Assembly (NCBI RefSeq): GCF_046105845.1 | Contig: NZ_CP151004.1 | Origin: Escherichia coli | Lineage (GTDB): Bacteria; Pseudomonadota; Gammaproteobacteria; Enterobacterales; Enterobacteriaceae | Length of the DNA: 64,000 nucleotides | Direction: 5' to 3' (one strand) | Shown here: one piece after another, positions 513 through 893 of the stretch | Numbering within the stretch: position 1 is the first letter of the stretch | Layout: each line of letters opens with the position of its first letter | Notes under the pieces: generated by a model | What the model saw: the letters and a program-made list of their open reading frames with translations, nothing else | What the model was told of the DNA's origin: nothing | Database searches by the model: none | Position numbers and translations under genes: made by a program

Positions 513-893
513 TTAAACTCCTCAGGTATCCCTGCTAATATTGAAACGTACATTAATGATAATTTCAGCCTGTTAATACAATGACGAGATATCATTAAAG
601 ACAAATGCATAGCATAACTATAGCGGGGTTTACTTTGCAGAGCGCTACTTTTCAGCGTTCAAAAGGCCATGGTAAATAAATATTTATCCTAAGATTAATT
701 CTTATTCTCTTGTTTTTTTCAATTATCTTCCAGGGAGGGATTCTTTTTCATTATTTGGTAAAAGACCGGATGGTATCGGTGCTTAAAATCATCGAACATA
801 TAAGTATTATTGCTTTATATCGTCGAAAATATGTCTTTCAGACATGTATTATTTATTTTGTTACAAACAAGTCAAAAATATCACAGGTTATTT

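Follow-up and report, generated by a model that had tools for sequence, protein, structure and literature searches.

The AT-rich yhiM-yhiL spacer of Escherichia coli as a very probable shared control region, H-NS-silenced and GadE-activated, with a GadE-site and TATAGT module common to two haplotypes

The proU, bgl, LEE and SPI promoters are examples of AT-rich regulatory regions silenced by H-NS, in which a high-affinity nucleation motif and intrinsic curvature are common without being obligatory. For the spacer between the divergent genes yhiM and yhiL, much of the regulation has been described in E. coli K-12. Purified H-NS binds the K-12 yhiM promoter fragment preferentially in competitive EMSA, and yhiM is up 10.75-fold in an hns mutant, with a 3.4-fold increase persisting upon additional deletion of gadE or rcsB (PMC2984483). 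The spacer carries an HNS flag in genomic SELEX with the RpoD holoenzyme (PMC3946193), its occupancy by H-NS is listed on the basis of ChIP work by Kahramanoglou and Oshima (PMC3661553), and H-NS is among the listed regulators of yhiM (PMC4918353 supplement). It has also been catalogued as island 3632424_449 (yhiL/yhiM), one of 78 promoter islands, linked with predicted foreign genes (PMC3661553); among the 25 of these 78 islands that lie in the last quarter of the genome, it is the only one giving long RNA products. Concerning activation, the GadE ChIP-exo study of Seo et al. (2015) reports an activating site at U00096.2 3632675-3632700, at a distance of -78.5 from the transcription start and with the entry "RpoS involved: Yes"; deletion of gadE lowers yhiM 15-fold (log2 -3.9), and the signal-to-noise ratio at yhiM is low, at 1.53 (PMC4918353 supplement). 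RcsB-D56E/GadE shifts the yhiM promoter in EMSA (PMC2984483), yhiM is induced through the YdeO>GadE cascade, and CpxR-P shifts the 0 to -400 yhiM fragment, in which no consensus site was found (PMC11005409).

We propose that the orthologous spacer of the strain studied here is, with high probability, a control region shared by yhiM and yhiL, coated by H-NS, activated by GadE and situated at the margin of a low-GC accessory block. The binding of and repression by H-NS, the binding of RcsB/GadE and CpxR, the position of GadE and the dependence on it, and the 5' end at -22 are all K-12 work by others; base composition, orthology, the conservation pattern and the cross-haplotype footprint come from the present analysis. 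The reading of the spacer as AT-rich and H-NS-silenced, to which GadE activation is added, is largely right: it describes a real and ordinary region, already published for K-12. What is new is that the spacer of a different haplotype, carried by 1128 of 5426 genomes, has nothing in common with that of the window except the GadE site and a TATAGT -10 element, 69 bp apart in both.

The window, by which we mean the whole stretch of 64,000 nucleotides that was analysed, begins with yhiM on the minus strand, followed within its first 9 kb by yhiL, yhiJ, yhiY, yhiI and rbbA, all on the plus strand. ORF calls, Pfam and the RefSeq annotation of matching genomes concur on these identities. Pfam assigns DUF2776 to YhiM and DUF4049 to YhiJ, and across YhiL and YhiJ (894..4385) it reports only DUF4049 and DUF6860; by eye, the motif GDTDG ... 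GD(H/Q)TGDRFS ... LAGNHE of both proteins resembles the metallophosphoesterase signature GDxHG / GDxxDR / GNHE. The features of the spacer and its surroundings are collected in Table 1. A sequence-only reading had delimited the spacer as 513-893 and 380 bp, which is correct within one base, the actual spacer being one base longer at 382 bp.

Table 1. Coordinates of the features described at the yhiM-yhiL locus; positions refer to the window unless stated otherwise.
Feature	Position	Strand	Details
yhiM-yhiL divergent intergenic region	512..893	none	382 bp, GC 31.2%; K-12 orthologue NC_000913.3 3634459..3634840
yhiM translation start	509..523	minus	Shine-Dalgarno GAGGAG 523..518, 6-nt spacer, GTG 511..509; described in PMC6604978
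yhiL	894..2501	plus	ATG at 894; intact, 535 aa, DUF6860 + DUF4049
Proximal yhiM promoter	533..568	minus	5' end A 533; -10 TTCAAT 545..540; -35 CTGAAA 568..563
Candidate distal yhiM promoter	609..623	minus	-10 TATAGT 622..617, C at 623 (CTATAGT); start ~610/609; no recognisable -35
Hypervariable patch	636..660	none	between distal -10 and GadE site; segment 631-660 (30 bp) has 10 variable columns
GadE (RcsB/GadE) activator site	673..700	minus	ChIP-exo footprint 675..700; GAD-box-like 20-mer TTAGGATAAATATTTATTTA at 692..673
Predicted yhiL promoter (Shimada et al.)	716..744	plus	window TTTTCA-17-GATTCT; K-12 TTTACA-17-GATTAT (PMC3946193)
Sigma-70-like match facing yhiL	783..810	plus	TTAAAA-16-TATTAT; prediction
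Sigma-70-like match facing yhiL	823..852	plus	TCGAAA-18-TATTAT; predicted start ~35 nt before ATG
Sigma-70-like match facing yhiM	875..848	minus	TTGACT-16-AATAAT; prediction
Sigma-70-like match facing yhiM	841..814	minus	CTGAAA-16-TATAAA; yhiM prediction of Shimada (PMC3946193)
Sigma-70-like match facing yhiM	751..722	minus	ATGAAA-18-GATAAT; prediction
Dimorphic segment	1..4520; L011 5259..6814		comparison with the alternative haplotype

The K-12 spacer is likewise 382 bp long and aligns with that of the window without gaps at ~94% identity. Published positions in U00096.2 were carried over by adding 1977 and then taking window = 511 + (3634841 - x). In the K-12 yhiL-yhiM region, which includes yhiMp, the flanking genes, the spacer length, the Shine-Dalgarno sequence, the GTG, TTCAAT, TATAGT and the GadE site are all identical to those of the window. 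The differences amount to ~24 substitutions (~6% of spacer positions): the proximal -35 of yhiM reads CTGAAA in the window and ATGAAA in K-12, the yhiL promoter predicted by Shimada is weaker in the window (TTTTCA/GATTCT) than in K-12, and yhiL is intact in the window, whereas it is a pseudogene in K-12. Among complete E. coli genomes none is identical over 400..1000, the best match reaching 98.3%. We infer that the K-12 results carry over to the present strain.

The A/T dominance noted in the sequence-only reading is far from chance, with a GC content of 31.2% against 52.1% for the whole window; just 0.27% of 382-bp windows reach so low a value, and TpA steps make up 11% of the spacer as against 4.4%. 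The spacer is the margin of an AT-rich block of ~4 kb and no isolated spike: low GC extends from ~381 to ~4040 and includes yhiL (34.5%) and yhiJ (37.6%). Elsewhere in the 64-kb window, only 37171..37763 has a GC content of 36% or less in 382-bp windows. The multiple A/T runs that had been pointed out are present, yet their number is what the composition leads one to expect (9 runs of at least 4, against 8.4 +/- 2.0 in dinucleotide shuffles, P=0.48). The suggestion of curved DNA did not hold. AA/TT periodicity at 9.5-11.5 bp is non-significant in the spacer (P=0.19), and its curvature, in an approximate profile from a wedge model, does not rise above that of shuffles (mean 11.1 and maximum 26.2 degrees, against 12.0 +/- 1.4 and 27.6 +/- 3.8), the sole local peak lying at ~868-878. 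The best match in the spacer to the high-affinity H-NS motif (TCGATAAATT-like) is 8/10, and counts of such matches equal those of shuffles, with no enrichment. Since neither the motif nor the curvature is raised, H-NS binding rests on composition together with the literature. The proposal of a typical H-NS-silenced, horizontally acquired locus is sustained by H-NS binding in K-12, by low GC and by the absence of yhiL and yhiJ from 1128 of 5426 genomes, and the possibility that no nucleoid protein occupies the region is contradicted by the published K-12 H-NS binding data. GadE/RcsB, sigma-S and CpxR, the activators specific to the region, escaped that reading.

Conservation among ten strains divides the spacer in two. 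In the coding sequence of yhiM the pairwise diversity is 0.017; it is 0.039 over the spacer half 512-702, 0.081 over the half 703-893 and 0.071 in yhiL. The GAGGAG/GTG start region of yhiM shows no differences among the ten strains; no variable sites occur in the 30 bp that begin at 587, a short way downstream of the distal start, the distal -10 block (609..623) is invariant, and the segment 661-706 that holds the GadE site has three variable sites. The patch at 636..660 lies amid these invariant blocks, and there NIPH17_0036 and CFSAN051542 differ at 10 positions in ~25 bp. In the window sequence 641-646 could pair, by eye, with 654-659 to form a 6-bp stem, which the variant does not keep.

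A wider comparison, over 5426 complete E. coli genomes, separates two haplotypes. In 4177 genomes yhiM is as in the window, yhiL and yhiJ are present and the spacer is of the K-12 type (382 bp, GC 31.2% in the window), whereas in 1128 genomes yhiM is only 78% identical at the DNA level, yhiL and yhiJ are absent and the spacer measures 557 bp with a GC content of 31.6%. At window 4521, shortly ahead of yhiY/yhiI, the alternative haplotype returns to 97% identity. The low-GC block and the presence/absence polymorphism of yhiL/yhiJ and of the spacer support an accessory, foreign character of the locus; the annotation of the regions around it contains no mobility genes, and neither an integrase nor a tRNA nor flanking repeats are marked there. 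In strain EA7 (L003 5071..6180), ISKpn26, of the IS5 family, has taken the place of the spacer, of yhiL and of most of yhiJ, and it cuts yhiM short at the 5' end. Between the two haplotype spacers BLAST returns a single common segment of 30 bp at 93% identity, window 673..702, which is the GadE footprint. TATAGT is also kept in the alternative haplotype, and 69 bp separate its ACTATA from the ATCCTAA core in either haplotype although the intervening sequence is largely different; the proximal -10 TTCAAT is not retained there. Since only the GadE site and TATAGT are kept, at fixed spacing, across haplotypes, the module they form can be regarded as a phylogenetic footprint, which speaks for the distal promoter as the one that is conserved and dependent on GadE. 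The footprint does not extend across species, since, when species-representative genomes were scanned, the GadE site was met as an exact 23-mer in E. coli only. Against the GAD-box consensus, the 20-mer agrees at 11/20 positions and at 7/7 in the core, and its TTAGGAT core (692..686) occurs once in the 64-kb window. The CpxR tandem GTAAA, RcsAB box, CRP and CueR-like consensus sequences gave no convincing match.

This footprint bears on the two published 5' ends of yhiM, which conflict. Primer extension in MC4100 and MG1655 gave one end, an A located 22 nt upstream of the GTG, preceded in K-12 by -10 TTCAAT and -35 ATGAAA (PMC6604978); the other end is placed at window 609/610 because the ChIP-exo table gives a distance of -78.5 (PMC4918353 supplement). 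Either way the spacer contains a yhiM promoter, as had been anticipated, and the published K-12 end at -22 contradicts the possibility of no transcription start in this region. Judged against the known consensus, TATAGT would be a good -10 element of the sigma-S type, and its lack of a -35 is as expected of an activator-dependent promoter. The footprint thus supports a conserved, GadE-dependent distal promoter starting near 609/610, and it is presumably this promoter that GadE serves; the end at 533 would then be either a second promoter or a processed end. An alternative explanation, in which the proximal promoter is the sole real one, the start at 609/610 is an artefact of the TSS set of Seo et al. 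and GadE acts from about -150, appears improbable to us: it accounts for the single end found in two K-12 strains and for a promoter of 17-bp spacing scoring 4/6 + 4/6, and its -35-like CTGAAA is also found in the alternative haplotype, but that haplotype has lost TTCAAT while keeping TATAGT at the exact spacing from the GadE core. Moreover, GadE would be activating from an unusual distance at about -150, since its other activating sites are placed at -54 to -64 in the table of Seo et al. RpoD and RpoS holoenzyme SELEX peaks both fall within the spacer, and the RpoS peak (3632742, ~window 633) is nearer the distal element.

On the side of yhiL, the divergent arrangement of promoters that had been suggested is borne out for yhiM by a published 5' end and stands for yhiL on hexamer predictions; in the literature found, no experimental yhiL start is documented. 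A simple hexamer scan gave four sigma-70-like sites in 722..875, two per strand, against 1.6 +/- 1.3 in shuffles, a mild enrichment, and this region falls in the published promoter island. The best sigma-70 match of the spacer, TTGACT-16-AATAAT, aims at yhiM from ~340 bp upstream. At 847..853 the plus-strand TATTAT, in the yhiL direction, and the minus-strand AATAAT, in the yhiM direction, share bases, forming a potentially bidirectional, symmetric -10. It could be argued that the spacer acts above all as a promoter island of the non-productive kind, trapping RNA polymerase and yielding short or abortive RNAs under H-NS, with no dedicated yhiL promoter and with yhiL silent and decaying. The catalogued status of the K-12 spacer, H-NS-bound and near predicted foreign genes, would fit such a view, as would the clustering of promoter-like sites on both strands, the pseudogene in K-12 and the internal stops of yhiL in further strains; relaxed constraint is also suggested by the variable sites of its 5' coding part, discussed below. 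We nevertheless find it unlikely, if somewhat less so than a lone proximal promoter, given that the island yields long RNA products, unique among the 25 of 78 in its quarter of the genome, that yhiL is intact in the window and its mRNA changes in a published time course, and that the yhiM-proximal half acts as a normal regulated promoter. A bolder extension of the shared control region that we favour, which we advance tentatively, would make the distal GadE/sigma-S promoter the main ancestral one of yhiM, with the -22 end processed or a haplotype-specific secondary one, and would have the symmetric -10 at 847..853 fire bidirectionally when H-NS is absent. Far less probable than any of these is a hidden, unannotated gene, whether for a small protein or a small RNA. 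Of two short ORFs, one would encode 24 aa on the plus strand (605..679) and remains open across strains, and the other would encode 26 aa on the minus strand (719..799) and lacks its ATG in O157 and O103 strains. Neither has a Shine-Dalgarno sequence, and for want of one, and of a conserved start, these ORFs were ruled out. Rfam gave no match at E<=1 over window 1..5000, no terminator turned up when the spacer was scanned, the putative yhiM leader of 98 nt folds into no significant structure (z=+0.26), and K-12 RefSeq annotates nothing in the spacer, though the small protein gene yhiY nearby is annotated.

The grouping of yhiL and yhiJ into one yhiLJ unit, also part of the sequence-only reading, is doubtful. 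A single transcription unit is not established, because yhiJ has its own predicted promoter, with an H-NS flag (PMC3946193), and a strong hairpin lies between the genes (~2565..2600, -25.3 kcal/mol, z=-4.9). This hairpin may act as a terminator or as an RNA-stabilising element separating yhiL from yhiJ; its sequence is a perfect 10-bp inverted repeat (TTGTAGAGGC ... GCCTCTACAA) followed by UCUUUA. In the first 405 bp of yhiL the ten strains have 29, 16 and 24 variable sites at codon positions 1, 2 and 3, as compared with 0, 1 and 17 in yhiM, which suggests that yhiL may be under relaxed or diversifying selection, with recombination. Some other strains carry internal stops in yhiL, whose alleles look mosaic. 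One review attributes a "potential SOS box" to yhiL; the presence of such a LexA site was rejected, as CTG-N10-CAG is absent from window 1..4200 and no 20-mer there reaches 14/20.

Taken together, these elements can be arranged in a working model. The general AT-richness of the spacer would let H-NS coat and silence the control region shared by yhiM and yhiL. Its yhiM-proximal half (512..~705) would be the conserved functional part, combining the site for GadE, with RcsB, and the activator-dependent TATAGT promoter, so that acid and stationary-phase signals (EvgA-YdeO-GadE, RpoS), together with CpxR, could overcome H-NS and lead to yhiM expression. The yhiL-proximal half (~705..893) evolves fast and holds several promoter-like hexamer pairs on both strands, and at least one of these pairs presumably drives yhiL at a low, H-NS-repressed level. 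The spacer would then be a case of documented H-NS silencing countered by GadE/RcsB, with added input from RpoS and CpxR, at a gene, yhiM, with links to acid survival, GABA export and copper/Cpx stress. Beyond annotation the significance is small; the haplotype footprint helps to choose between the conflicting 5' ends of yhiM and pinpoints a minimal conserved control module.

Three groups of known systems can be compared with the locus. Like the H-NS-silenced foreign DNA of the proU, bgl, LEE and SPI promoters, it has a GC content that falls short of the host average by ~20 points, and in K-12 it is de-repressed when hns is mutated and has specific activators that counter H-NS; unlike these regions, the spacer shows neither enrichment of the high-affinity H-NS motif nor predicted curvature. 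The promoter islands of Shavkunov, Panyukov and Ozoline are AT-rich, bound by H-NS and near predicted foreign genes, as is the K-12 orthologue, but, unlike most of them, the latter gives long transcripts and has a conventional activator-dependent promoter. Finally, at the GadE-regulon promoters of gadA, gadBC and hdeD, GadE occupies a position upstream of a sigma-S/sigma-70 promoter, as at K-12 yhiM, and in all of them activation is lost upon deletion of gadE, H-NS silencing is countered and RcsB/GadE binds. The yhiM site departs from this group in being centred at ~-72 to -78 rather than at -54 to -64, in agreeing with the GAD-box consensus only in the TTAGGAT core and at four further positions, and in its weak ChIP-exo signal.
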